DNA of 64,000 bases from Escherichia phage vB_EcoM_EP57: sequence record OR544956; one strand, given 5' to 3'. Positions 2,345-60,969 of this stretch are shown in pieces (the stretch's first letter is position 1; every line of letters begins with the position of its first letter). The position numbers and the translations under genes were made by a program. The notes beneath the pieces were generated by a model. It was not told the origin of the DNA, made no database searches, and saw only the letters and a list, made by a program, of their open reading frames with translations.

Positions 2345-2569
2345 TTCATCTCCTCATTTATTCAATGCAAGCATTATTTGCATGACAATCTCCTCTCATC
2401 GTTAGCCATCTTTCATGGCAATCATCAATCACCAACATCATACGATCAATCTCAGGGAATTACAATCGAATTATCATAGGGGATTCCTATCAATTATCCC
2501 ATATATACCGATTATTTTTGACACCCCACTCTTGTATAAAAAGTAACCCAAAATATCTACGGGGAGAGA

Positions 2570-2764
2570 TTATTTCGACACACCCTGTTTCATGGCAATC
2601 ATGGCAAGAATATCTAATAGAATCAATATCATATGGCAAAAATCATGACGCATACGTAAGAAGTGCTTAACGCGAATTTTCGGGCCGTCAGGTCCACGCA
2701 GCGACAATTCCCAAATATCATGCGAATGAGAATAATTATCATTCGTATTCAATGACTTATGCAA
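2570..2764 (-). CDS. hypothetical protein (64 aa)
   Basis: ORF only; weak support. Confidence 0.3.
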   Translation of the reverse strand: MHKSLNTNDNYSHSHDIWELSLRGPDGPKIRVKHFLRMRHDFCHMILILLDILAMIAMKQGVSK

Positions 2765-3787
2765 GGCTCATGCCAACATAGCGACAAGGTGGGCCACCTG
2801 ATTATAAATCACACAAACACTTATTTATCAATGGCTTGGCAACTTCATCATATGACGGAACAATGTCAACTGATCCCGCTCATGACAAACGGACTATTAT
2901 TTATATGAGAATGATTATTATTTAAACGTTTATTAACATAAAAGCCAAAATAAATCAAGAATTTTCTGATTTTATTTACGTTTAAGAGAACTTGCTCAAC
3001 ATATCGCTACGCGATAGTATTCGCCCCCCATGCTAATGATCTCATCTTGTAATTACCACAATGATTATTGTTATTGCGCTAATGTTATGATCTTGGTAAT
3101 TACATATAATGCTAATAATAAGCCAGCGCAATAAGTGTAAGCGTCATTACGCTTGCAATTATTGCAAGCTACGCAGTAACAAGAAATAACCATCACCGAT
3201 GGTTATGATTGTTGGGGTGTAGTTGGCTTATTATTAGCTCGCTATGTGTCCGGCATAGCGTGCTAATGATGACTCTGTGAATGATTCGTTTTGTAATGAT
3301 TTCATTTAGGCACTATTATGGTAATAGTTATTATTTTAATGGTTTCGTTTGTTATTGTTCGTTAGTTGGTTGTTTTGTCGTGTTATCGTTATCTTGTTTA
3401 GTATTCATCATGGTTTGATTGTTTGTTGTTATCAATCATCTTGCTATTATTCCTTTGATTATGATTAGTTTGCTTATTGTTTTAGGTTGTTGGTTAGTTA
3501 GTTGTTGCGAACTATTATCAACATTATAGTTATGCACTTATATTGCATAGATAAACATGGATAGATGATAATGGTTATCATTGCACTAGAAAGGAGGTAA
3601 AAGGGTGTTTTTGATGGTTTGTTGTTGGTTGTTGATCGATTTTAACCGCTATAAATGGCTCTCTAACAGCCTGTTACCCTGGGAGGTATGGTTATTCGTT
3701 TAATGGTTGATTAGCTTGATACCGCTATTTATTCAGTTTTGTTCTGTGTCGGTTTTCCATAGGCGGAATCTATCAACATTATTCAGG

Positions 3788-3815
3788 CAAAAAGAAAGGG
3801 CGCTTGGTGCGCCCC
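3788..3815 (-). terminator. rho-independent terminator
   Basis: hairpin GGGCGC-TTGGT-GCGCCC followed on minus strand by CTTTCTTTTT; downstream of 3831..4250. Confidence 0.6.
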
Positions 3816-3830
3816 TTGTTTTGTTGTCAA

Positions 3831-4250
3831 TTATAACGCTTCATAGATTGAGTAGATCCGGTTTGCCAGGTCATTACGAAAGCGGAATTTTTCATCACGT
3901 TTGATCATCAGATCCTTAAAACCACATTCTTTCAAGGCTTCATTAACTTTATGGCGGCAAACGTTCATATTATCTTGCGCGTCACCAATAAACTTATTAC
4001 TGTGATGCATTGCTTTGATCTCTTCCTCTAATACCAGGGCAACTACACGGATCGGATCAAGCTGATATGCGGTAACATCCATGCGGCATTGTAAACGGCT
4101 TTTAACATCGTTTACCGGATATACTGCAACCTCTTCCCCGTCAACGTTCACGATAACCAATTTACCATCGATTTCGAAGCCTTTGGCGGCGCTACCGTGA
4201 CAAAAAGCATTATCGAAGGAGTAAGCTGGATTATTTGATTTAATGTTCAT
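3831..4250 (-). CDS. hypothetical protein (139 aa)
   Basis: ORF, strand-consistent. Confidence 0.6.
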   Translation of the reverse strand: MNIKSNNPAYSFDNAFCHGSAAKGFEIDGKLVIVNVDGEEVAVYPVNDVKSRLQCRMDVTAYQLDPIRVVALVLEEEIKAMHHSNKFIGDAQDNMNVCRHKVNEALKECGFKDLMIKRDEKFRFRNDLANRIYSIYEAL

Positions 4251-4359
4251 GGTGTTGTCCTTTGTTTCGTTTCGTTGTTTGCTGCCAGTGAGTTAAATAT
4301 AATATAACGCCGATCCCCTGTCAATAGGGGATAGCGCATTATTTACATTTCTTTACGTT

Positions 4360-4380
4360 AAAGGGCGCTTGGTGCGCCCC
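4360..4380 (-). terminator. hairpin, possible terminator
   Basis: same GGGCGC..GCGCCC hairpin as 3798-3815, weaker U-tract. Confidence 0.4.
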
Positions 4381-4390
4381 TTGTATAATC

Positions 4391-4759
4391 TTACTTTGTG
4401 CGGTTGTGAACGTTATCGCGTTCAACCATCAGGGCAAGGCGGATCAGTTGATCAGTTGTATCGCGTAAATTGTCGGGCCATGTTTTACTGTTCCAGCTAT
4501 CCATGTTTGATTGTATATAGGTTTCAATGGCTTGATCCATATTATCAAACAAGTTTTCCTCCAGGCTCTCGGCTGTTTCACACTGGAAAGCATTAGCGAC
4601 ACTATTAATCAATAAGCAAGCCAGTAAATCAGCATTACGCCAATTTTTACGGATAGTTTCATCTGTCAGATAACCAACGAGATTAACCTTTGCGCCAGTG
4701 GTTGACGTTGCGATAACTTCTTGTGCTTTTTCAAGTGCTTTAATTGCTGATTTGCTCAT
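4391..4759 (-). CDS. hypothetical protein (122 aa)
   Basis: ORF, strand-consistent. Confidence 0.6.
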   Translation of the reverse strand: MSKSAIKALEKAQEVIATSTTGAKVNLVGYLTDETIRKNWRNADLLACLLINSVANAFQCETAESLEENLFDNMDQAIETYIQSNMDSWNSKTWPDNLRDTTDQLIRLALMVERDNVHNRTK

Positions 4760-4837
4760 TTTATTTTCCTCTTTGTGGGCTTGCTGTATTGCTCGCCCTA
4801 CGCAATAACTATAAGTTAACAGGAGCTATAAAGCAAG

Positions 4838-5071
4838 TTATTTTTTATAAAATTTTTCTGCTGTGATATTCTTCCCAGTAGGCTTAACCACTTGCAAGAT
4901 CTTATCATGTGCCGAACGTCCAAAAGAGTAAGATCCGTACACGGTAAACCAATAATCCCCGTTCGGTTGAACGGTTACGGCGGCGTACGGTGTACCTCTT
5001 TCATTATCCCCGATAAAGTGAGAAACATTACCGTTAACATTTGGTTTAGTGCTTTTAATTTGTTCGATCAT
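4838..5071 (-). CDS. hypothetical protein (77 aa)
   Basis: ORF, strand-consistent. Confidence 0.55.
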   Translation of the reverse strand: MIEQIKSTKPNVNGNVSHFIGDNERGTPYAAVTVQPNGDYWFTVYGSYSFGRSAHDKILQVVKPTGKNITAEKFYKK

Positions 5072-5090
5072 GATATGACTCCTAAATCAG

Positions 5091-5148
5091 GCGGGAAACA
5101 TTCCCGCCCTACGTGATAAATAATAATGTAAGCGTGATCCGGTGTCAA
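5091..5148 (-). promoter_or_regulatory. early promoter + 5' hairpin cassette (PeSL-like)
   Basis: minus-strand TTGACA, -10, then hairpin gcgggaaacattcccgcc just upstream of next ORF. Confidence 0.55.
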
Positions 5149-5324
5149 TAGGTAGGATTGTAAAGATTTGATAGTTTATTCCTTTGATGTTTTGTTATTT
5201 GATAGGCGTTAGTTATCAATATATAGCGGGGTCTTCCGGTGATTATCTTCCCCTGTTTCCAGGTGCCGCCCGTTCAATAAGCATAACAAAAAACAGGACA
5301 AAAGCAAGCCCTGTTTTGTAAAGA

Positions 5325-7398: not shown

Positions 7399-7459
7399 GG
7401 CGTTGCACCATTGCCCCGCCCTACGTAATACACTTTACTAGATAACAAATTATTGTCAA
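7399..7459 (-). promoter_or_regulatory. early promoter + 5' hairpin cassette (PeSL-like)
   Basis: TTGACA and imperfect hairpin ggcgttgcaccattgccccgcc. Confidence 0.45.
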
Positions 7460-7462
7460 GCT

Positions 7463-7600
7463 TTATTTTACTTCCCAAACGGAAAATTCGCTGCCTGTTG
7501 GGATCATCTTTTTAATCTTGTTTGCTGCCGCTACCAGGTCAACGGCTTGCACTGTAATAATATAACCAATTGTCGAGGCTGTTGCGTTGAAAGTTTTCAT
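7463..7600 (-). CDS. small hypothetical protein (45 aa)
   Basis: hand-found ORF with AAGGGTAATATA RBS. Confidence 0.35.
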   Translation of the reverse strand: MKTFNATASTIGYIITVQAVDLVAAANKIKKMIPTGSEFSVWEVK

Positions 7601-7620
7601 TATATTACCCTTTAATACAG

Positions 7621-7637
7621 GCGGGATTAATCCCGCC
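7621..7637 (-). promoter_or_regulatory. GC hairpin of the same family, no promoter
   Basis: ggcgggattaatcccgcc between two small ORFs. Confidence 0.4.
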
Positions 7638-7644
7638 TTGTTGA

Positions 7645-7815
7645 TTACTCTTCATCGTCGCCGTTATAGTATTCAATGCCGTTTTCATCGGTTACGGTGA
7701 TGTTAACGCCACCGATAGCAACACGATCACGGGCAAACGTCATAGCTTCATTTAAATCTTCAGACCAAAAAATATTGTGACCTTTGCGCGATACATAAAA
7801 CATAGTCGGGATCAT
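7645..7815 (-). CDS. hypothetical protein (56 aa)
   Basis: table ORF 7645..7899 trimmed to internal ATG downstream of hairpin. Confidence 0.45.
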   Translation of the reverse strand: MIPTMFYVSRKGHNIFWSEDLNEAMTFARDRVAIGGVNITVTDENGIEYYNGDDEE

Positions 7816-7836
7816 GATTTGTTTCTCTTCTGTTGT

Positions 7837-7899
7837 GAGCGGTGGACCATTCCGCCGCTCTATGTAATAAACTTTACTACGTTGTTTGCCTACTGTCAA
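7837..7899 (-). promoter_or_regulatory. early promoter + 5' hairpin cassette (PeSL-like)
   Basis: TTGACA then hairpin gagcggtggaccattccgccgctc. Confidence 0.55.
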
Positions 7900-7900
7900 A

Positions 7901-8185
7901 TTATTTTTTAATGTTTTGCCCTACAAAATTGATCACTTCCTTAAGCTGTTTCTCAGTCATGATCGTGCCTGGTAGTTCCTCTTTGATTTCTTCTGGTAAA
8001 TAGATATTACCGCGCCAGGTTAACAAACAACCGTTTTGATCTTCGCAGATAGAATAAGAAAACATCCACTCGCAATCATTTTCAAGCTCCCAAAAACACA
8101 AAAAGTCTTCTTTCCCTAAGTTTTCAACGGTTAAACATAATCCGCGACGTGCTGCATAATTAGTTAGGCTTTTTGTTATTTTCAT
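7901..8185 (-). CDS. hypothetical protein (94 aa)
   Basis: ORF trimmed to ATG downstream of hairpin. Confidence 0.55.
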   Translation of the reverse strand: MKITKSLTNYAARRGLCLTVENLGKEDFLCFWELENDCEWMFSYSICEDQNGCLLTWRGNIYLPEEIKEELPGTIMTEKQLKEVINFVGQNIKK

Positions 8186-8204
8186 GATTTTTCTCTCTTC
8201 TTGT

Positions 8205-8262
8205 GAGCGGCACCATTGCCGCCCTACAAGATACATATTATCAGACTAGGCGGACTTGTCAA
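8205..8262 (-). promoter_or_regulatory. early promoter + 5' hairpin cassette (PeSL-like)
   Basis: TTGACA-N16-TAATAT then hairpin gagcggcaccattgccgcc. Confidence 0.6.
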
Positions 8263-8263
8263 A

Positions 8264-8548
8264 CTATTTTTTCTTTTTCTTTGCTTCCAACCGTCTAAGG
8301 TTACGGCTTGACTTATTGCGCAAGGCGCTTAGATCGTCGTACCCTTTCCATGCTTGCATATCTTTCGGATTCATGTTATCCCCCTTATATTTGTTAGCCG
8401 GATTATATACCAGGACCGCGCCGCTTGCTTTCACGCTTTCCGCTTCATAGTTGCGCAGATCGTTTTCTGTAAGATTGAGCGCGATCACTTCCTCGACTTC
8501 AACGCCAGCGGCAAGGGCGATCTCTTTGATAATGTCTGTTATTTTCAT
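8264..8548 (-). CDS. hypothetical protein (94 aa)
   Basis: ORF trimmed to ATG with AAGGTG RBS. Confidence 0.55.
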   Translation of the reverse strand: MKITDIIKEIALAAGVEVEEVIALNLTENDLRNYEAESVKASGAVLVYNPANKYKGDNMNPKDMQAWKGYDDLSALRNKSSRNLRRLEAKKKKK

Positions 8549-8679
8549 GGTGTGCACCTTATAAGATGATTGATAAGATAGTGACAACGAAAGCGATTAT
8601 ACTGATGGCAAATGTCATCTTTTTTACCTTCGGATACTGCCGGATTCTCTACCGTGTATTCTACTGTGTACTTGCTCAT
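8545..8679 (-). CDS. small hypothetical protein (44 aa)
   Basis: hand-found ORF, GAGAGGA RBS, ATGA overlap with next gene. Confidence 0.3.
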   Translation of the reverse strand: MSKYTVEYTVENPAVSEGKKDDICHQYNRFRCHYLINHLIRCTP

Positions 8680-8702
8680 CGTGTAATCCTCTCGTTTGCT
8701 TT

Positions 8703-8759
8703 GGGAACTATTCCCGCCGCCCTATGAATTAAATATACACTATCTCAAAATGATTGCAA
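8703..8759 (-). promoter_or_regulatory. early promoter + 5' hairpin cassette (PeSL-like)
   Basis: TTGCAA-N16-TATATT then hairpin gggaactattccc. Confidence 0.5.
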
Positions 8760-8776
8760 GCCTTTTTCTAAATTAT

Positions 8777-9061
8777 TTATGCAGTAAACAAACCATCATT
8801 TACAACGGCGGCGATGATCTCCCGTGCCATTGATTCAGGGAAAGGGGCGCTATAGTCCTGGCTTGTCTCATCGGTATCAGTGATCCAATGATAAGCTAAC
8901 GAGTAAAAGCCTTTACTAACTGTTTTCAGTGAGATGATGATCACTCGGTCAAGCTTATTGGTGAATGTTGCCGTTAATGTGTTACCCTCCTGCGTCATGT
9001 TGGACAAGTAAGCGGGATCATTAATCAGGGAAAACATTAGCACGGTGTTAGCTTTACTCAT
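8777..9061 (-). CDS. hypothetical protein (94 aa)
   Basis: ORF trimmed to ATG downstream of hairpin. Confidence 0.55.
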   Translation of the reverse strand: MSKANTVLMFSLINDPAYLSNMTQEGNTLTATFTNKLDRVIIISLKTVSKGFYSLAYHWITDTDETSQDYSAPFPESMAREIIAAVVNDGLFTA

Positions 9062-9079
9062 GATTGCATCCTCAAAGGG

Positions 9080-9138
9080 GGCGCGGCACCATTGCCGCCC
9101 TACACGATAACTATAACACAATATAAAACAGGATCAAC
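9080..9138 (-). promoter_or_regulatory. early promoter + 5' hairpin cassette (PeSL-like)
   Basis: hairpin gcgcggcaccattgccgcc; weak -35. Confidence 0.45.
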
Positions 9139-9340
9139 CTTTATTTTTCCACGGTGTCAGCTTGTTAATCATTGGTGATAAATAGCGTTTACCAACGTAA
9201 AACAGCACGCCAACTGATGCAACGGCGGCGATCTCATGTAAGGAGGAAGGACGCGCGGTGTCATAGTAGGTACCGATAATAGCAATAGCGGCAACGGCTG
9301 CAACGTCGATAATGATTTTTTCTTGTTTTGCGGTGATCAT
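9134..9340 (-). CDS. small membrane protein (68 aa)
   Basis: hydrophobic segments. Confidence 0.5.
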   Translation of the reverse strand: MITAKQEKIIIDVAAVAAIAIIGTYYDTARPSSLHEIAAVASVGVLFYVGKRYLSPMINKLTPWKNKG

Positions 9341-9362
9341 AATATTTACCTTTTTGTATGGT

Positions 9363-9419
9363 GGGGAACTATTCCCCGCCTGATGTAATACAGTTTAACA
9401 GGTCCGGTTATGGTGTCAA
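9363..9419 (-). promoter_or_regulatory. early promoter + 5' hairpin cassette (PeSL-like)
   Basis: TTGACA then hairpin ggggaactattcccc. Confidence 0.55.
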
Positions 9420-9425
9420 CCACTT

Positions 9426-9611
9426 TTAAAGATATTTTATACTGATAACGTTTTCCGGTTTAACCTTGTTGCGATGTGCATCAACATAGATCAAACCATC
9501 GTCAGAAAAGCCCAGGATCACGCCCTGCGCAATAAAACCGTATTCGTCACGGTAACGCACGGCTATTTTTAATGTTGCGTTGTAGGCTGTTTTAAGCTCG
9601 TTTAAAGTCAT
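9426..9611 (-). CDS. hypothetical protein (61 aa)
   Basis: ORF. Confidence 0.5.
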   Translation of the reverse strand: MTLNELKTAYNATLKIAVRYRDEYGFIAQGVILGFSDDGLIYVDAHRNKVKPENVISIKYL

Positions 9612-9631
9612 TTTTGTTTATCCTCTACATG

Positions 9632-9659
9632 TAAAAAGAAAGGGCGCTTGGTGCGCCCT
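9632..9659 (-). terminator. rho-independent terminator
   Basis: GGGCGC-ACCAA-GCGCCC hairpin plus U-tract on minus strand. Confidence 0.55.
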
Positions 9660-9666
9660 TGTTATG

Positions 9667-9813
9667 TTAATCCTCTAAATCCATCCAATTATATTTGTCA
9701 CTCTTCCCGCGCTTTGTTTTATTGCGCTTGTCGCCTTTGCGGATCACTTCCTCATTCCAGGCCTTGCGGATCTTGGAAGATTGAATTTTTTCTGCGCGAT
9801 TAGATGTATTCAT
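9667..9813 (-). CDS. small basic protein (48 aa)
   Basis: hand-found ORF, AAAGAGGAAACAAA RBS. Confidence 0.35.
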   Translation of the reverse strand: MNTSNRAEKIQSSKIRKAWNEEVIRKGDKRNKTKRGKSDKYNWMDLED

Positions 9814-9831
9814 TTTGTTTCCTCTTTATAT

Positions 9832-9886
9832 GAGCGGCACCATTGCCGCTATATTATTAATTTAAACTGTTTTGTAAAATTGTCAA
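9832..9886 (-). promoter_or_regulatory. early promoter + 5' hairpin cassette (PeSL-like)
   Basis: TTGACA then hairpin gagcggcaccattgccgc. Confidence 0.55.
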
Positions 9887-9892
9887 GGTTTA

Positions 9893-10246
9893 TCATTCAT
9901 AAGAGCAAGCAAGGATCACTCCTGCAATATAAAGCCAATAATTTTCCCTTTCTCGTTGGATTTTATCATCGCTGCTATTCTCTTTAATGTATCCCCAGGA
10001 TGTTAACAAGCGATCCACTTCCCAATATTCGAAAGCGATATTAATGTCTGATGGCAAACCTTGTAACCATGATGCAAGTGCTTTAACAATACTATAATTA
10101 AAACGTGATTGGTTATCAGGGTACCAGTACTCGGAATTAAAACGGCGCATCAATTCCGCGATCTTCTCTTTTTCGGTTGTAATACCATAATCATTAAAAT
10201 CGATAGCGGCAAGGATGTACTCTTTAATTGCATTTTGTGCTTTCAT
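9893..10246 (-). CDS. hypothetical protein (117 aa)
   Basis: ORF. Confidence 0.6.
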   Translation of the reverse strand: MKAQNAIKEYILAAIDFNDYGITTEKEKIAELMRRFNSEYWYPDNQSRFNYSIVKALASWLQGLPSDINIAFEYWEVDRLLTSWGYIKENSSDDKIQRERENYWLYIAGVILACSYE

Positions 10247-10324: not shown

Positions 10325-10546
10325 TTATTTTGTTACTACCATTTGGTACCCTGTTTCAATGTTAGTAAATACTGTTATCCCGTCCTGGCGTTCACTCATT
10401 AGCATACAAGGCGCTAACATCCTTTCTACTGCCTTGCACTCGTTGTAAACGGCGGTTATATCTCCTGCTGCCTTGTCTTCTGTAGTAAATGTCTCATTTA
10501 CGTAAACTTGACCAGCGACAACGGTGACAATAGCGAAAGTGATCAT
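10325..10546 (-). CDS. hypothetical protein (73 aa)
   Basis: ORF. Confidence 0.5.
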   Translation of the reverse strand: MITFAIVTVVAGQVYVNETFTTEDKAAGDITAVYNECKAVERMLAPCMLMSERQDGITVFTNIETGYQMVVTK

Positions 10547-10619
10547 GATGTTTTTCTCTTTATGTGTTTCGATTAGTTGATATTACAGCAATTCGCAGAT
10601 TAGTTTTCAGCAATTCGTG

Positions 10620-10838
10620 CTATTTACTCATAACAGTATCGAAAACAAATTTTTCTTTGTTGTCAAAGCTCACGTATCCGATTCGACCACGCAAGCCGCG
10701 AGTAGTGCCGTATTCGTAACCGTCAAGACCTTTAACCTTCCAATCCACGCCCATTAAAACCGCATTATATTTCTGACCAACTACAAACGCGCCACCAGTT
10801 GATTCAATGCAAACAACTTTAATTTTACGGATTGCCAT
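10620..10838 (-). CDS. hypothetical protein (72 aa)
   Basis: ORF. Confidence 0.55.
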   Translation of the reverse strand: MAIRKIKVVCIESTGGAFVVGQKYNAVLMGVDWKVKGLDGYEYGTTRGLRGRIGYVSFDNKEKFVFDTVMSK

Positions 10839-24694: not shown

Positions 24695-26287
24695 GTGTCT
24701 ACACAATTGAGTTTTACACCTACCGATGAACAATACGCTATTGAAAGTGGGTATAAAGAAAATCGTTTCGTTACAATTCAAGCTAAATCTGGATCAGGTA
24801 AAACGTCAACACTATATATGTTGGCTAATGGCACAAATGATAGTATTCTATACTTGGCGTTTAACAAAAGTATGGCAGAGGAAGCTCGGCGTAAAATGCC
24901 GCCTAACGTTATGTGCCGAACGCTACATTCAATCTGTTACCAGCGTCTTCCACAAAACCTTCGACACAAATTATCTCGTCCAGAAGGTCAATATGTTAAC
25001 GTAGCTGGAACTGGTAGTGAGATTGCCAAAAAATTCAAGATTCAGAACTTGATTGATAAGAATGGTAAAGTGCTACTGACTCGTGCAATGATCGGGTTAA
25101 TGGTAAAACAAACTTTAGCTAAATATGAGTTTTCTGACGATGAACATATTGGACATAAACATTTTCCTAAAGTGCATATGTCAGATCTTAAACGTAAGAA
25201 TATCAACGAACAAAAACTTATTAACGAAGTTGTTAAATATGCGAAGCAACTTTGGCGTGAGCGTATTGATCCTAAATCAGAAACCATTATGACTCATGAC
25301 ACCTATGTGAAACTCTTTGAATTGAGCAAAGAAGATTTAGGATACGATATTATTTTTGGAGATGAATTCCAGGATGTTAACCCTGCATTCCTGTCTATCC
25401 TTCGCAATGCTAAATCGGCTAAACGTATTGTTGTTGTGGGTGATGAATTTCAGAGTATTTATCAGTTCCGTGGAAGCCAGAACATGATGAAGCAAACAGC
25501 TACATATGGGGTTGAGTTGCCTCTGACAGCTTGTTTTCGCTTTGGTCCTAAAGTTGCGGACATTGCTAATGCGATCCTTTCTGATCGTTCACCTCTGAAG
25601 CATCCGCTGGTAGGCAAAGGTTATGATACTGTCACTGGAAGTTTTCATTCTGATGTGGTAGATTATAGTAAACCTTACACCATTATTTTCCGTAAGAATT
25701 TGACTCTGTTGCTCGAAGCTATGGACCGAATCGCTAACGGAGAAGAGATTATTATTAACGTAGATACCAAAGATTTCATTTCTATGGTTGATAGTGTTAA
25801 TGCTTTACGTAGAGGCGATTTGGACAAAGTTAAGCATGAGACAGTTCTCCCTTACACCTCTTGGGAAGAATTTGTAGAGTGTGCAGAATCAGATCCTGAT
25901 GCAAAACGACTTTTAAACATTGTTGTTTCTGGTAAAGCTAATAATATTGCATACACTTTACGTATGCACCGTAACTCTCCAACGGCTAAAGTTACTTTAA
26001 CTACAGCCCACAAATCAAAAGGTTTGGAGTGGGATCAGGTTATTGTTGCAAATGACTTCCCTTCTAATTATGATAAGAAGGGTGAGTGGGTAGGTCTTGA
26101 AGAATCAGAACGAAACCTTCTGTATGTTGCACATACACGTTGTATTAAATGTCTACAATGGAACCAGACTGTTCAAGAGATTCTAGACATGCATCGTTTA
26201 GGTAAGAGCACGGCTCCTGTATCCGAAGAAGATAAGCTTATAGCTGCCCTTGCTCGTAAGATTAATCAAATCAGAGAGGATCGTTAA
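24695..26287 (+). CDS. UvrD/Rep-family SF1 DNA helicase
   Basis: Walker A SGSGKTS, DEFQD, GDEFQSIYQFRGS, TAHKSKGLEWD. Confidence 0.8.
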   Translation: MSTQLSFTPTDEQYAIESGYKENRFVTIQAKSGSGKTSTLYMLANGTNDSILYLAFNKSMAEEARRKMPPNVMCRTLHSICYQRLPQNLRHKLSRPEGQYVNVAGTGSEIAKKFKIQNLIDKNGKVLLTRAMIGLMVKQTLAKYEFSDDEHIGHKHFPKVHMSDLKRKNINEQKLINEVVKYAKQLWRERIDPKSETIMTHDTYVKLFELSKEDLGYDIIFGDEFQDVNPAFLSILRNAKSAKRIVVVGDEFQSIYQFRGSQNMMKQTATYGVELPLTACFRFGPKVADIANAILSDRSPLKHPLVGKGYDTVTGSFHSDVVDYSKPYTIIFRKNLTLLLEAMDRIANGEEIIINVDTKDFISMVDSVNALRRGDLDKVKHETVLPYTSWEEFVECAESDPDAKRLLNIVVSGKANNIAYTLRMHRNSPTAKVTLTTAHKSKGLEWDQVIVANDFPSNYDKKGEWVGLEESERNLLYVAHTRCIKCLQWNQTVQEILDMHRLGKSTAPVSEEDKLIAALARKINQIREDR

Positions 26288-26518
26288 ATGGCGGGGTATC
26301 ACATAACAGACATTAAGAAACAACCTTATGGCAGCATAGAAAAGATTAAAGAGGAAGTAGAAGAACTTTTTGATGCTGTTGAGCAGGATTGCAAAATAAT
26401 GCAACTTGTTGAATTGTCAGATATTATAGGTGCTGTCGAGGGAGTTTTAGAACAACAGTTCCCAGATATGACTTTACCCACGTTACCGCAAGCGTCGTCA
26501 GAAGCCGCCAGTAGGTAA
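26288..26518 (+). CDS. hypothetical protein (76 aa)
   Basis: ORF. Confidence 0.45.
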   Translation: MAGYHITDIKKQPYGSIEKIKEEVEELFDAVEQDCKIMQLVELSDIIGAVEGVLEQQFPDMTLPTLPQASSEAASR

Positions 26519-26573
26519 GAAGAGTGTCGTTCGTGTCCTTTACACTACACAGCAGACATACACATTTAAAAAT

Positions 26574-26846
26574 GTGGTAGACGTGCAAGTGACCGAGGAG
26601 CGAGTTTATATCCAATATGATCGTGAAGTTACAGAGGGTATTAAAGAATCGGTTACTACCGAAATTGAAAATAAGCTTGTTATGGCAATCATTGTAGAAG
26701 AAAGTAAAGTAGAGAACGGTAAAGCCTACACTGTTCGTGATAGTTTCTTGCGTAACATTGATGGAACTTGGGATTATAATGGACACGATGGGACCGCTGT
26801 AAAGAACGGTAAGATCATGGGAAGACAATTCCTCTCCAAACGATAA
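26574..26846 (+). CDS. hypothetical protein (90 aa)
   Basis: ORF, GTG start. Confidence 0.45.
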   Translation: MVDVQVTEERVYIQYDREVTEGIKESVTTEIENKLVMAIIVEESKVENGKAYTVRDSFLRNIDGTWDYNGHDGTAVKNGKIMGRQFLSKR

Positions 26847-26852
26847 AACTTA

Positions 26853-26877
26853 AAGGCGCACTTTGCGCCTTTTTTGA
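26853..26877 (+). terminator. rho-independent terminator
   Basis: AAGGCGCA-CTTT-GCGCCTT plus TTTTTTG. Confidence 0.65.
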
Positions 26878-26946
26878 TTTTCCTCAAAGCTTTTTTCGGT
26901 TGGAAGAGGTAGAATAATAGTTCTACTCACAAAATAAGGATTAATA

Positions 26947-28196
26947 ATGAAAGATTTGTACCAAGATGTTTTTTCTTTTTTAGATCGCACTTCAGAAACA
27001 TACACTAGAGAGAATGCAAACAAACCTTCCCACCTCGTTAACACACACAGGGATCTCTTGGCGGGGATTTTAAGCAAACATATGGCAATGACACAGATAC
27101 TGCCAAAAAACTTGTCAGAATGGCATACAGAAGGTTTTGGACATATTCACGACTTGGATTATCTGCTCTCTCCTCTTACAAACTGTTGTCTTGTTAATTA
27201 CCAAGATATGTTAGAAAATGGTTTTAAGATCGGTGCTGCACAGATAGAAAAACCAAAATCTATTGGAGTAGCTACCACAGTGCTAACTCAAATCATCCAA
27301 GCTGTAGCATCCAGTCAGTATGTCTGTTCCTTTGAACAAAGAAGTTACGGGATCAGCAGATGGTACTGTTACGAGTATGGGTTGTCGTTCCTTTTTGTCG
27401 TACTATGCCACCGAACAAGGAGAAAAATATGATGGACGATTCAACCTTGAGACATACCAAAGCATCTGAAAACCCTATTCTTTTCATGGAAGGGGCTTTA
27501 GCGCGTTTAAATGCCAATGATGAAATTGGTGTTTTGTTTGAAGATGGTTATGCTTCTATTAGTATTGGTTATGTAGGTCTTGCCGAAGCTTTGGAAATCC
27601 TTTATCCAGAAGAAAAAGATAAAAAGGAACTTGGTAAAAGCATTCTGCAACATATGAAAGATGTGTGTGCTGTGTTTAAAGAACGATCTAAGCTGGCGTT
27701 TAGTCTCTATGGAACTCCAGCAGAATCCTTGTGCTATAAGTTTGCAACAGCTTTAAATAAAAAATACCCAGGTTTGGTAGAAAGAGACTATCTTACTAAC
27801 TCTTTTCATCAACCTGTGTGGTTGGTAACAAATCCTTTTGAAAAATGGGATTATGAAGCAGGTTTTGCACAGATTAGTAATGGTGGTAACATAAGTTATG
27901 TCGAAACACCAAACTTAAAGAATAACTTAGAAGCTTTGGAGACTTTAGTAGACTACGCTTATGAACATATTCACTATTTTGGTATTAATCAGCCCGTGGA
28001 TCAATGCTTTAAGTGTGGTTTTCATGGGGAATTTAAGGCAACGGCTAAAGGGTTTGAGTGTCCTGATTGTGGCAACCATGAAGAAGAAACTATTTCTGTA
28101 GTTAGACGTGTATCAGGGTATCTTTCTGCCCCTAATTCACGGCCTTATAACAAAGGTAAAATGCAGGAAGTTTTGCAAAGGGAGAAACATCTTTGA
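26947..28196 (+). pseudogene. nrdD: anaerobic ribonucleotide reductase nrdD, disrupted
   Basis: RDLLAGI, HIHDLDY, MGCRSFL, glycine-radical RVSGY, C-terminal Zn ribbon; read across three frames and lacks central part. Confidence 0.75.
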
Positions 28197-28663
28197 ATTT
28201 TGCAGGATATGAACCTGTAGATCTTATTAATGGTGAGGGAGTTAGGTGCTCCCTCTGGGTTAGTGGTTGTAGCCACGGTTGTCGTGGCTGTTTTAACCAA
28301 AAAGCCTGGTCTTATTCTTATGGGAAACCGTTTACTCACGAAAATGTAGAGCAAGTTTTAAAAGATTTGTCAAGACCGTTTGTAAAAGGTTTAACAATTT
28401 TAGGAGGAGAGCCATTAGATCCGCAGAATATTTACAATGTTAAAAACCTTATAGAAAAGGTTAGAGATGTTTATGGGTCAAGCAAAGATATAATGGTGTA
28501 TACAGGATATACTTTTGAGGAAGTGCCTTTGTATATTAAAAATCTTGTTGACATTATTGTAGACGGAAAGTATGAAATAAACAATCCAACTACAAAACCT
28601 TTCAGAGGGTCAGATAATCAAAGATTATGGACCAAAACGGCAAGTGGTTGGCAATCAGATTAA
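28193..28663 (+). CDS. nrdG: anaerobic RNR activating enzyme (radical SAM)
   Basis: CSHGCRGC C-x3-C-x2-C motif; follows nrdD. Confidence 0.75.
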   Translation: MNFAGYEPVDLINGEGVRCSLWVSGCSHGCRGCFNQKAWSYSYGKPFTHENVEQVLKDLSRPFVKGLTILGGEPLDPQNIYNVKNLIEKVRDVYGSSKDIMVYTGYTFEEVPLYIKNLVDIIVDGKYEINNPTTKPFRGSDNQRLWTKTASGWQSD

Positions 28664-28676
28664 CTTAGGAGGTTTC

Positions 28677-28868
28677 ATGGTTACATATTTTGCTGTAGGA
28701 GATAGAGTAGGGACGGCAGGACAACTTTTGAAGAACAGTGATCGGGACGTTAAGGACATTCTTGCAACCCTTGTGGATATTTTACAAAGAAAAGAGTTGC
28801 TTTCTGATCGAGATGTTGCTAAATTACTTGATATCGGAGGAGATGAACTTCAAAGACTTCCATTTTAA
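28677..28868 (+). CDS. hypothetical protein (63 aa)
   Basis: ORF trimmed to ATG after AGGAGG. Confidence 0.45.
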   Translation: MVTYFAVGDRVGTAGQLLKNSDRDVKDILATLVDILQRKELLSDRDVAKLLDIGGDELQRLPF

Positions 28869-28883
28869 GTGAGGAGATAAGTA

Positions 28884-29489
28884 ATGCAACATAGTGTAGT
28901 AGTCAACATGCCGAATAGTGGGGATAAATCTTTTGGTGTCCCTGCTAAAAAAGTGTGGAAAGCCCATTTTCATCTTACTTTATCTAACGTTAGTTCTGAA
29001 GAGTTGATGAAAGCAGCTAAGATTATTGGTGCCAAATGCACAACAATTGATTTACATCGGGATACAAAGTCTCAACGTGATCGTATGTTAACAAAGTATC
29101 AAAGCGATCTCGACACTACTTTAATGTTGCAGTGTGTAGAAAAACTTGAGAATGCAGGTTTCAATGTTGTTCGTTACAAACTGGAACGAATGTTTAAACA
29201 TGTTGCCTGTGTTCTTTTCATGGATCTAAGTAAAGAAAATTACGGAGAAGTTCACATTAAGACTTCAGCAAGTGATCCCGAAGTAGAAACAAACTTCTTC
29301 CGTATTTCTTCTAATGCTGAAGAAATTGATTACCGATTTTATAATGCTCGCTTATATTCCGCAGAAGATAAGTTGCGTTTCAATGAAGCGTATGATATGC
29401 TCTTGAACAGTGGGATACAGATAAAAGGCTACCACATAGAACAAGTGGTAGTGGACAGTAATCTTAACTTAGACGCATGGTGGGCTTAA
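28884..29489 (+). CDS. hypothetical protein (201 aa)
   Basis: ORF; one HLTL (HxTx-like) motif only. Confidence 0.55.
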   Translation: MQHSVVVNMPNSGDKSFGVPAKKVWKAHFHLTLSNVSSEELMKAAKIIGAKCTTIDLHRDTKSQRDRMLTKYQSDLDTTLMLQCVEKLENAGFNVVRYKLERMFKHVACVLFMDLSKENYGEVHIKTSASDPEVETNFFRISSNAEEIDYRFYNARLYSAEDKLRFNEAYDMLLNSGIQIKGYHIEQVVVDSNLNLDAWWA

Positions 29490-36378: not shown

Positions 36379-36546
36379 TTGACTCGACAGGAACTGATCA
36401 CAATCATTGAAGATGCTTTTATTGATGGCTGGAATACACAAGATAATGACTGGGGTGGACCCGAAGCTTTTCTGGAACATCATAAAACTTATGGAGACTC
36501 TTGTGAAACCACTGTAGCTCTTGATAATCTGAAGGAGGGTTTGTAA
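36379..36546 (+). CDS. small hypothetical protein (55 aa)
   Basis: hand-found ORF, TTG start. Confidence 0.3.
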   Translation: MTRQELITIIEDAFIDGWNTQDNDWGGPEAFLEHHKTYGDSCETTVALDNLKEGL

Positions 36547-39388: not shown

Positions 39389-39910
39389 TTGCTGATAAAA
39401 AACTTTGTAACAGTTGCGTTACTATCCTTAACTGCTTTTACATTTACACCTGTTGTGGCGAAAGCCGAAGCTGCAAACGTAAAAACCGCTAAAGTAGTTC
39501 ACAAATGTACAAAGCAATATAATGATAAAATTCTATTAGCTTGTGCAATTTACGCAGAAGGTCGCGGTCTGGGTAAAAAAGGAATGAATGCCGTTGGGAA
39601 TGTGGTAATCAACAGAAGAAATGATACCTACTTCCCTAACACAGTCAGAGGAGTCTTGTTCCAGAAAGGGCAATTCTCATATGCGAAAACTTTTAACGTA
39701 ACAGAGAAAGATAAGTGGCAGGAAGCAAAAGCAATAGCGGAGCGTTTACTTTATTTAGAGAAACATTTTCCTGAATTGCGGTCTGTTTTAGATGTTACTA
39801 AAGGTGCTCTATACTTCAAGAAACGGAATATAAGAACACACTGGGAACGTGATATGCGTCTTGTTTATCGAGATAAAGTGCATGGTTTCTATCTACCAAA
39901 GGGGAGTTAA
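39389..39910 (+). CDS. secreted SleB/CwlJ-like cell-wall hydrolase
   Basis: signal peptide; AIYAEGRG..VGNVVINR. Confidence 0.6.
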   Translation: MLIKNFVTVALLSLTAFTFTPVVAKAEAANVKTAKVVHKCTKQYNDKILLACAIYAEGRGLGKKGMNAVGNVVINRRNDTYFPNTVRGVLFQKGQFSYAKTFNVTEKDKWQEAKAIAERLLYLEKHFPELRSVLDVTKGALYFKKRNIRTHWERDMRLVYRDKVHGFYLPKGS

Positions 39911-58264: not shown

Positions 58265-58516
58265 TTACCCCTTATTCTGTGTACGTTTAACTATGTCATC
58301 TAGCATCATTTGGATAGTCGCATTCTTGAGGTCCATAATCTTTTCAATTTTTTGCTCAAGGGTGTTGTTATTTGCCATTAATGTAGAGTTAATTTGATTT
58401 AGCATCTGGGTAAGTTCGGCTTTAGTTGCGTAAGTTGATTCAACAAAGACCAACTTCTTCTCTAGCTCTCGACTTTTCTCCTCCATTTCCTCAAGATCAG
58501 AGCCGAATTTATCCAT
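58265..58516 (-). CDS. coiled-coil structural or chaperone protein (83 aa)
   Basis: helical, charged. Confidence 0.45.
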   Translation of the reverse strand: MDKFGSDLEEMEEKSRELEKKLVFVESTYATKAELTQMLNQINSTLMANNNTLEQKIEKIMDLKNATIQMMLDDIVKRTQNKG

Positions 58517-59591: not shown

Positions 59592-60969
59592 TTACACTCC
59601 ATACTCGTAAGAAATGTTATCAAGGTCAAAAGAAGGGACAACATTATAAGCAGGAACTATATTATTCTCTGTATATTTACTGTCATCCTCAGTATTAAGT
59701 TTAACATAAACACGAAGAGAAGTCAAGCGTCCAAAAGCAAGTGCTGCATAAATAACCCCTTTGATTTGATCGTTCGTTACTGAAGAACCTAATTCAAAGT
59801 AAGCTTGCAGGTTTTGTAAAGCTTCTACGATGTTTTGTTTTTCTGTTCCACTTAAAGTTGTTCCGTTGACAGTTTGATAAACAAGTTTTACAGAATACAT
59901 AGCAGAAGCACCTTTCTTCAGCACTCCCTCCATAAACTATAGTCTGGAAAGTCATAGCTGGAGCATGTTCTTGATCATGTAACGTAGGGTTATCATAAAT
60001 CTTCACCTTAGTAACACCATCTGTAAGTAACAGAGCTTTCACAATAGCTGCTCGTGTCCCTGCGTTAGCTTCGTCAACGTTGTCATTGAAACGAGAGCGG
60101 AATTCTGCGTCTGTCTCAACATCTCGACCAGGGGAAAATGAATAGAAGTTACCACTATCAAGATAACCTGTAAAGGTAGAAGATATCCCTGTAATAGACT
60201 CCACACCAACAGGATTGTATCCTTTCTCTGCTGCAACTACCGGAATCTCACTCCACTTGGTTCCAACCGGAACACTAGCATAAAATTTAATAGGAGTTAC
60301 CAGTCCCACTGGAGTATCACTGGTTAAAGAAGTAAAACCAATTGATAAGTTACCTGAATCAGAAAATACAAGACTACGATCAGCTTCTGTTAAATTTGCC
60401 TTGATAAAAGTTTCAAGATCGGTTATAAATGTAGAAGAACCAGGTGCAAGTGTTTTACTGTTTAGTCCTCCATCGACCGCACTTTGTGCATAAAAAGTAA
60501 TATTTGGAACACCTGTAGCAGTTGCATTAGCACGAGAGATTTGATAAGCTGCAATCTTAGCATTCAACATGGTTGGTGTGCTAACATAATAGTTCATATC
60601 ACTATCAGAGTTGAAGTAAATATCCGTGCCTAACTCATAAGTCCAAGCTGCTTTGTTATTACTCTTAACATATGCATAACCTGTACTTGCTGCTGCCCCT
60701 GCTCGATAGAAACCGCGTTTAGAAAAAATTTCGTCAAGATAAATACCTTCTGCGCCATCTAGTGTTTGAGTATTATAAACACCTTGCATACCTTCCCACA
60801 ATGTGTAATCTGTGTATGCAATTATTCTAAACAGTTGTCCGATCACAGTATCTTCAGAAGTGGCTGCATCTGCACCAAATGTGTTTTTTACTGCTGTCAT
60901 ATAATTGTTTAGAACATCGTCAAAAGTCGGGATTACAAATCCCGCATCTGTTAAACCATATTCGTCCAT
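59592..60969 (-). CDS. baseplate J-like protein, frameshifted
   Basis: ORFs 59794..60969 and 59592..59933; shift at an A-run. Confidence 0.45.

Follow-up and report, generated by a model that had tools for sequence, protein, structure and literature searches.

The class III (anaerobic) ribonucleotide reductase NrdD has been described in phage T4 (PDB 1H78, 1H79, 1H7A, 1H7B and 1HK8), and its MGCRSFL motif includes the catalytic cysteine. The T4 gene is also among the phage nrdD genes that are split by a group I intron (the nrdD/sunY intron). Phapecoctavirus members carry the gene in an nrdD-nrdG operon, as exemplified by the phages tuntematon (tuntematon_85/86, MN850618.1) and phAPEC8 (phAPEC8_00222/221, JX561091.1). 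In both, the intact nrdD comprises 1815 nt in one ORF that encodes 604 aa, and its end overlaps the 471-nt nrdG. The NrdD of an intact relative aligns with T4 NrdD (PDB 1H78) from end to end (E 1.4e-166), with the alignment taking in the motifs NCC and MGCRSFL, the Zn ribbon and the glycyl-radical loop, which reads RRVSGYL in the relative versus RRTCAYL in the deposited T4 chain. A literature search on the Phapecoctavirus RNR yielded routine genome descriptions only.

In this study, we undertook a computational analysis of a stretch of 64,000 nt (hereafter the window) from the sequence record of Escherichia phage vB_EcoM_EP57 (OR544956), which by sequence is a genome segment of a Phapecoctavirus (phAPEC8-like myovirus). 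Its closest relative is Escherichia phage tuntematon, a live phage to which it is ~99% identical and from which it diverges overall by only 0.7%. A megablast search with positions 26900–28700 matched 67 phage records, four of them at no less than 99% identity, with tuntematon (MN850618.1) the best. As in tuntematon and phAPEC8, nrdD-nrdG in the window sits between a UvrD-type helicase block and hydrolase/PRTase genes, and the retained DNA is 98.3–99.4% identical to that of tuntematon. Unlike those phages, the window does not have nt 377–813 and 941–1068 of the gene, nor 1628 nt upstream of it, and the three remaining parts of nrdD are mutually out of frame. Our analyses indicate that this split nrdD is most likely one instance of a segment loss that runs through the whole window and stems from the building of the sequence, rather than a product of gene evolution.

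Local BLAST comparison with tuntematon showed that nrdD (26947–28196) is short of 437 nt plus 128 nt, together 565 nt, relative to the 1815-nt gene. The remnant is composed as follows:

26947 to 27322, + strand: nrdD fragment A, gene nt 1–376, the first 125 codons and 1 nt more, frame 1; motifs NCC (aa 79–81), HIHDLDY and ASSQY; PF13597 profile positions 1–103 (E 9e-27); 124/125 aa shared with tuntematon NrdD
27322 to 27323, + strand: junction 1, gene nt 377–813, codons 126–271 (437 nt) gone; blunt, microhomology 0
27323 to 27449, + strand: nrdD fragment B (127 nt), gene nt 814–940, codons 272–313, frame 2; motifs MGCRSFL, which aligns with MGCRSFLS of T4 NrdD, and GRFNL; 42/42 aa identical to tuntematon
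27449 to 27450, + strand: junction 2, gene nt 941–1068, codons 314–356 (128 nt) gone; blunt, microhomology 0
27450 to 28196, + strand: nrdD fragment C, gene nt 1069–1815, codons 357–604 plus stop, frame 3; Zn ribbon (CFKCG...CPDCG) and glycyl-radical RVSGY; PF13597 positions 316–562 (E 6.5e-70) and Gly_radical (E 6e-28); 248/248 aa identical to tuntematon

Since each of the two losses shifts the frame by 2, the three pieces lie in three frames, and the ORFs found in the window divide in the same manner:

26947 to 27432, frame 1: NrdD ORF 1, with RDLLAGI, HIHDLDY, FKIGAAQIE and ASSQY
27320 to 27469, frame 2: NrdD ORF 2, with MGCRSFL...GRFNL
27360 to 28196, frame 3: NrdD ORF 3, with CFKCG...CPDCG...RVSGY

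This ORF listing and the Pfam matches bear out the initial annotation of the region, which had noticed conserved nrdD motifs split over three frames. It had also described an internal deletion plus at least two frame changes, of which the missing DNA is confirmed, while the frame changes are no separate events but the two deletion junctions themselves. Likewise, the stretch between ASSQY and MGCRSFL that it reported as missing is indeed absent, although the true gap, up to the SVPLNK...MGCRSFL piece, measures 146 aa and not 150–170 aa. A second gap, of 43 aa after GRFNL, had been overlooked, and a third loss, of 1628 nt, occurs between 26477 and 26478. Alignment of the three-frame conceptual translation to the intact tuntematon NrdD, a check that the annotation had proposed, succeeded with the identities listed above.

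The consequences for the protein are severe. No ORF of the window runs continuously for ~600 aa over the whole NRDD profile (PF13597 plus PF01228), and positions 104–315 of the Pfam NRDD profile are covered by no window ORF, so that 189 core codons are absent. In comparison with T4 NrdD, residues 126–271 and 314–356 are missing, and MGCRSFL, in frame 2, is unreachable from the ATG at 26947, whereas the C-terminal RVSGY and the four-Cys Zn ribbon are present in fragment C. All of the motifs spanned by the T4 alignment of the intact relative are thus found in the window fragments, though not in one frame. As written, translation leaves the frame after fragment A and ends at the stop at 27432, so that only a truncated 161-aa product can result; exact-protein look-ups with this chimeric ORF and with the window’s helicase found no record.

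The genes on either side of nrdD fare differently:

28193 to 28663, + strand: nrdG, radical-SAM activase, intact; its TTG start overlaps the nrdD stop; CSHGCRGC cluster motif
26477 to 26478, + strand: upstream junction, 1628 nt gone, directly upstream of nrdD
26288 to 26518: ORF, a chimera across the loss at 26477/26478
26574 to 26846: ORF, C-terminal remnant of a 462-aa gene (tuntematon_84)

The earlier description of nrdG as intact holds: it is a full-length open frame with the CxxxCxxC motif of the activase (PF13353/PF04055), a Fer4_12 match over positions 1–136 of 137 (E 3e-42) and a protein identical to that of tuntematon. Upstream, the loss of 1628 nt takes out the end of one small gene, the whole of the next and most of the 462-aa gene, which is intact in tuntematon as tuntematon_84 and matches phrog_15930, labelled ‘ribonucleotide reductase’ (E 3e-168), with no Pfam domain.

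Interrupted nrdD genes do occur in relatives of this phage. In a public contig (L007, logan SRR6474917_581, 7418–10004) and in phage nepoznato (L020, MN850571.1, 850–3434), nrdD is split by an insert of ~770 nt adjoining the MGCRSF codons, with complete exons on both sides. The insert, which contains an HNH/I-HmuI-like ORF of 169 aa, matches Rfam RF00028 (Intron_gpI) at 39.7 bits (E 5e-8), short of the gathering score of 50. The nrdD of these genomes resembles that of the window in being annotated as separate ORFs, and natural splitting by group I introns is the one point in favor of the idea that the split gene is still expressed, be it with the help of an intron or intein or by programmed frameshifting or translational bypass. 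That idea can be given almost no credence, however, as the window lacks DNA instead of having an insert, and no intron was matched: a scan of 26000–29000 at E ≤ 0.1, with L007 as the positive case, returned no Rfam match, and the region has no extra DNA relative to intact genes. Moreover, the codons that are gone belong to the conserved core, and absent residues are beyond rescue by recoding. The L007 contig has a further feature of this kind at 2541–5171, a UvrD-type helicase of 876 aa versus 530 aa with weak Hint and Intein_splicing Pfam matches, which suggests that this helicase carries an intein insertion.

Comparison with public sequences revealed the lesions of nrdD in the window only. 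The DNA missing from it is carried by the 64 phage records that match 27200–27600; most of these match in three pieces over 964–1015 nt, versus 401 nt in the window, and in most of them nrdD is a single uninterrupted ORF of 1815–1827 nt. The exceptions are nepoznato with its intron-split gene, vB_EcoM_REC, whose record ends in the region, and a few partial matches. In vB_EcoM_REC (L019, OM386667.1), the match to nrdD exceeds that of other relatives by 51 nt and the annotated nrdD starts at an internal position; judging by its locus tags, this linear record appears to begin and end in the region. Junction 1 has an identical breakpoint against all 11 of the 11 relatives compared. In the public protein collection, 371 blocks, that of tuntematon among them, list the exact NrdG protein, and the eight NrdG-identical contigs listed out of those 371 blocks encode a 604- or 608-aa NrdD or, in one case, have the intron-split gene. 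Neither the 64 matching phage records nor these eight listed contigs have the nrdD deletions. Searches of viral_contigs, genome_contigs and metagenome_contigs for the junction k-mers found none, a result that is uninformative for viral_contigs, the one collection in which an intact 25-mer control was run, as this control was absent there as well.

These observations bear on the possibility that nrdD itself is decaying or has been lost adaptively, the reductase being dispensable, for instance during aerobic propagation, and deleted while nrdG has not yet decayed. T4 nrdD is dispensable under aerobic conditions, nrdD of the window is hit twice within 565 nt, and the neighboring gene that matches a ‘ribonucleotide reductase’ PHROG family is hit too. 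The sequence of the remnant speaks against this reading. Relative to tuntematon it has nine differences, eight synonymous and one non-synonymous, and no small indels; the non-synonymous change is common to all six other relatives compared and is therefore specific to tuntematon. The variation is thus of the purifying type only, with no trace of relaxed selection in the form of non-synonymous changes, extra stops or small indels, nrdG is likewise free of further damage, and the same type of lesion recurs at ~19 other sites, including essential structural genes. Together with the absence of the deletions from the 64 matching records and the eight listed contigs, this renders a decay specific to nrdD highly improbable. 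The initial annotation had left the choice between gene decay and locally poor sequence; the first is disfavored by the ~21 sites hit and the lack of relaxed selection, and the second is favored, except that the problem is window-wide and not local.

Comparison of the whole window with tuntematon identified 26 colinear offset steps, every one of them a loss in the window, which sum to 13.4 kb. Approximately 21 of the 26 are window-specific blunt losses of 56–2227 nt that account for ~12 kb of the ~13.4 kb shortfall, with essentially no gains, and their breakpoints in the window are the same when it is compared with SKA64, phAPEC8 and seven other public contigs. Besides the two in nrdD, there are nineteen such losses, of 56–2227 nt, specific to the window against all relatives compared, and many of them lie inside genes:

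Other loss junctions, first part, by last base of the left block: 2100, 2170, 3028, 8387, 15882, 16193, 16694, 18650, 23409 and 26477
Other loss junctions, second part, by last base of the left block: 32078, 50527, 52246, 54476, 57757, 58585, 59912, 61148 and 61549
59912 to 59913, - strand: baseplate wedge subunit gene (phrog_6), short of 110 nt and split into ORFs 59592–59933 and 59794–60969

Other affected genes include those for TerC (56 nt lost) and tRNA nucleotidyltransferase (104 nt lost), and losses of 284–2227 nt occur in tail-fiber, tail-fiber assembly and tailspike genes. The lesions are hence not confined to dispensable genes, as would be looked for in pseudogenes formed by deletion in vivo, and a phage with the window genome exactly as written should be non-viable. 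The window also differs from tuntematon by ordinary presence/absence polymorphisms that are not specific to it, namely 220 nt at 36379, common to several public contigs, and 667 nt at 2015, common to SKA64. All but 20 nt of the window align to tuntematon; 18 of these 20, at 2359–2376 (TATTCAATGCAAGCATTA), match neither flank of the corresponding tuntematon gap, and the rest is two bases.

The character of the junctions is uniform. Of the 16 with an exact position against tuntematon, 13 have a microhomology of 0, the mean being 0.31 versus 0.72 for random placement, and no filler was found at the unique junctions examined. Only 3 of the 16 losses are in frame, showing no preference for keeping the frame. 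The direct repeats or microhomology expected at the junctions of a pseudogene formed by deletion in vivo are missing from both nrdD junctions, and such blunt junctions fit slippage-type deletions poorly. Two technical causes were also considered and ruled out: repeat-mediated assembly collapse, as junction microhomology is just 0–2 nt, and GC-biased coverage dropout, as the lost DNA has a GC content of 0.408 versus 0.395 overall and GC across nrdD is unremarkable.

One explanation for losses of this kind is that the deletions are genuine and the phage genome defective and non-viable, as in a population of defective particles or a captured, decaying copy, with nrdD one of many genes hit. The junctions are clean with flanks of high base quality, letters alone prove no artifact, and a one-off genome would be expected to be absent from public collections. 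This explanation would nevertheless demand ~21 independent blunt deletions without microhomology in a genome just 0.7% from a live phage and without relaxed selection. Spontaneous phage deletions usually arise via short direct repeats and, to our knowledge, E. coli is generally held to be without classical end joining. A captured copy also finds no counterpart in E. coli chromosomes or plasmids, as a search of complete E. coli genomes and plasmids gave no match to the window region. In view of this evidence, and of the position of the losses described below, we consider real deletions in a defective genome to be unlikely.

The losses coincide with patches of the genome that vary between strains. 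The fraction of the lost segments that is non-identical between tuntematon and SKA64 is 37%, versus 10% ± 5% at random placement, and none of 2000 permutations of same-sized segments reached the observed value. Roughly half of the losses have both ends within ~50 nt of a patch boundary, and at roughly half the identity of the relatives is 96–100% in the 50 nt outside the loss versus 0–88% just inside. What has been kept is correspondingly uniform: no 100 nt of the retained sequence are less than about 82% identical to tuntematon, and only 0.2% of 100-nt windows fall below 90% identity to tuntematon and none below 80%, versus 15.6% and 11.8%, respectively, in the natural pair tuntematon and SKA64. 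The missing fraction of ~17% is about the divergent share in a natural pair. In addition, the mismatch rate rises to 2.1% (~2.7-fold) at 11–30 nt from the junctions, compared with 0.77% for the whole and 0.7% within the final 10 nt, a clustering that has the shape expected of local-alignment ends. We know of no biological process that excises exactly those patches that differ between other strains, which counts further against a defective genome.

Loss 1 of nrdD illustrates this coincidence. The 12 nrdD alleles compared fall into a 604-aa and a 608-aa class, set apart by a mosaic patch that spans gene nt ~360–896, and their nucleotide diversity is 0.160 within loss 1 versus 0.019 in the N-terminal flank. 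The loss begins (nt 377) where the patch begins, and positions 27306 and 27309 of the window (gene nt 360 and 363), 14–17 nt ahead of junction 1, have the first two SNPs of the 608-aa type. An intact allele with these flank SNPs was found in neither viral_contigs nor metagenome_contigs, the latter searched without a positive control. The 608-aa class is represented by the relatives L010, L011, L017 (ECO340P1) and L018 (P3322), in which the patch is ~70–80% identical to that of the 604-aa class. The end of the patch is the insertion site of the intron, which suggests that exchange of the patch is linked to intron homing.

The same patches allow a third kind of explanation to be weighed, in which the losses are independent of divergence and represent random coverage gaps closed without Ns or an arbitrary removal of segments after assembly. 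The range of sizes from 56 to 2227 nt, the unbiased composition, a spacing of junctions that appears roughly random by eye and the location of several losses within conserved stretches are all compatible with it. The strong tendency of the lost segments to be genus-variable patches, which 0 of 2000 permutations reached, is not, and neither is the identity of many loss boundaries with patch boundaries; furthermore, the presence of islands of 71–131 nt beside islands of 14 kb would, judging by the block lengths, be a poor fit to simple random shotgun coverage. We therefore regard divergence-independent loss as improbable, more so than a defective genome.

The explanation that we favor, loss during the building of the sequence, would have as its cause a build limited by similarity. 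This could have been contig stitching or a reference-guided consensus that relied on a tuntematon-like genome, or else an assembly of a strain mixture that was joined without gaps. Only the parts close to the reference would have been kept, and patches at which the sampled phage had a divergent allele would have been dropped silently. Reference-guided consensus or stitched assemblies that omit uncovered or unalignable regions are a known class of artifact, and the window resembles that class in having only losses, with blunt junctions that are blind to frame and gene function and tend to lie at divergence boundaries, and in having kept nothing divergent. It is unlike that class in the 18-nt stretch and in the losses within conserved regions, neither of which is a direct consequence of the model. 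Loss 2 of nrdD (gene nt 941–1068) lies in a stretch conserved among the few relatives compared, as do the losses corresponding to tuntematon 10446–10802, 39654–39709 and 58378–58481, so that one must assume for them either a simple gap in coverage or a divergent allele that has yet to be seen. Similarly, the 18 nt at 2359–2376, which match neither flank, would not be expected from a pure mapping consensus on tuntematon, and the tuntematon-type sequence of fragment B means that the sampled allele is not simply the known 608-aa type.

Were the junctions real after all, a natural defective Phapecoctavirus would have lost about twenty segments by blunt joining, roughly half of them clearly strain-variable patches and the mosaic middle of nrdD included. 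A possible process is the excision of heterologous loops from heteroduplex DNA in a mixed infection, but we hold the chance of such an origin to be very slim.

Taken at face value, the window would describe a phage that is losing a gene for anaerobic nucleotide supply while keeping its activase, and our evidence marks that inference as false. Instead, the window is the sequence of its closest relative minus the variable patches. All of the apparent pseudogenes, frameshifts, truncated tail-fiber genes and gene fusions in it are suspect, and its other pseudogene-like findings are probably the same artifact. As for the real phage, it most likely has a continuous nrdD of ~604–608 aa with a divergent middle section.
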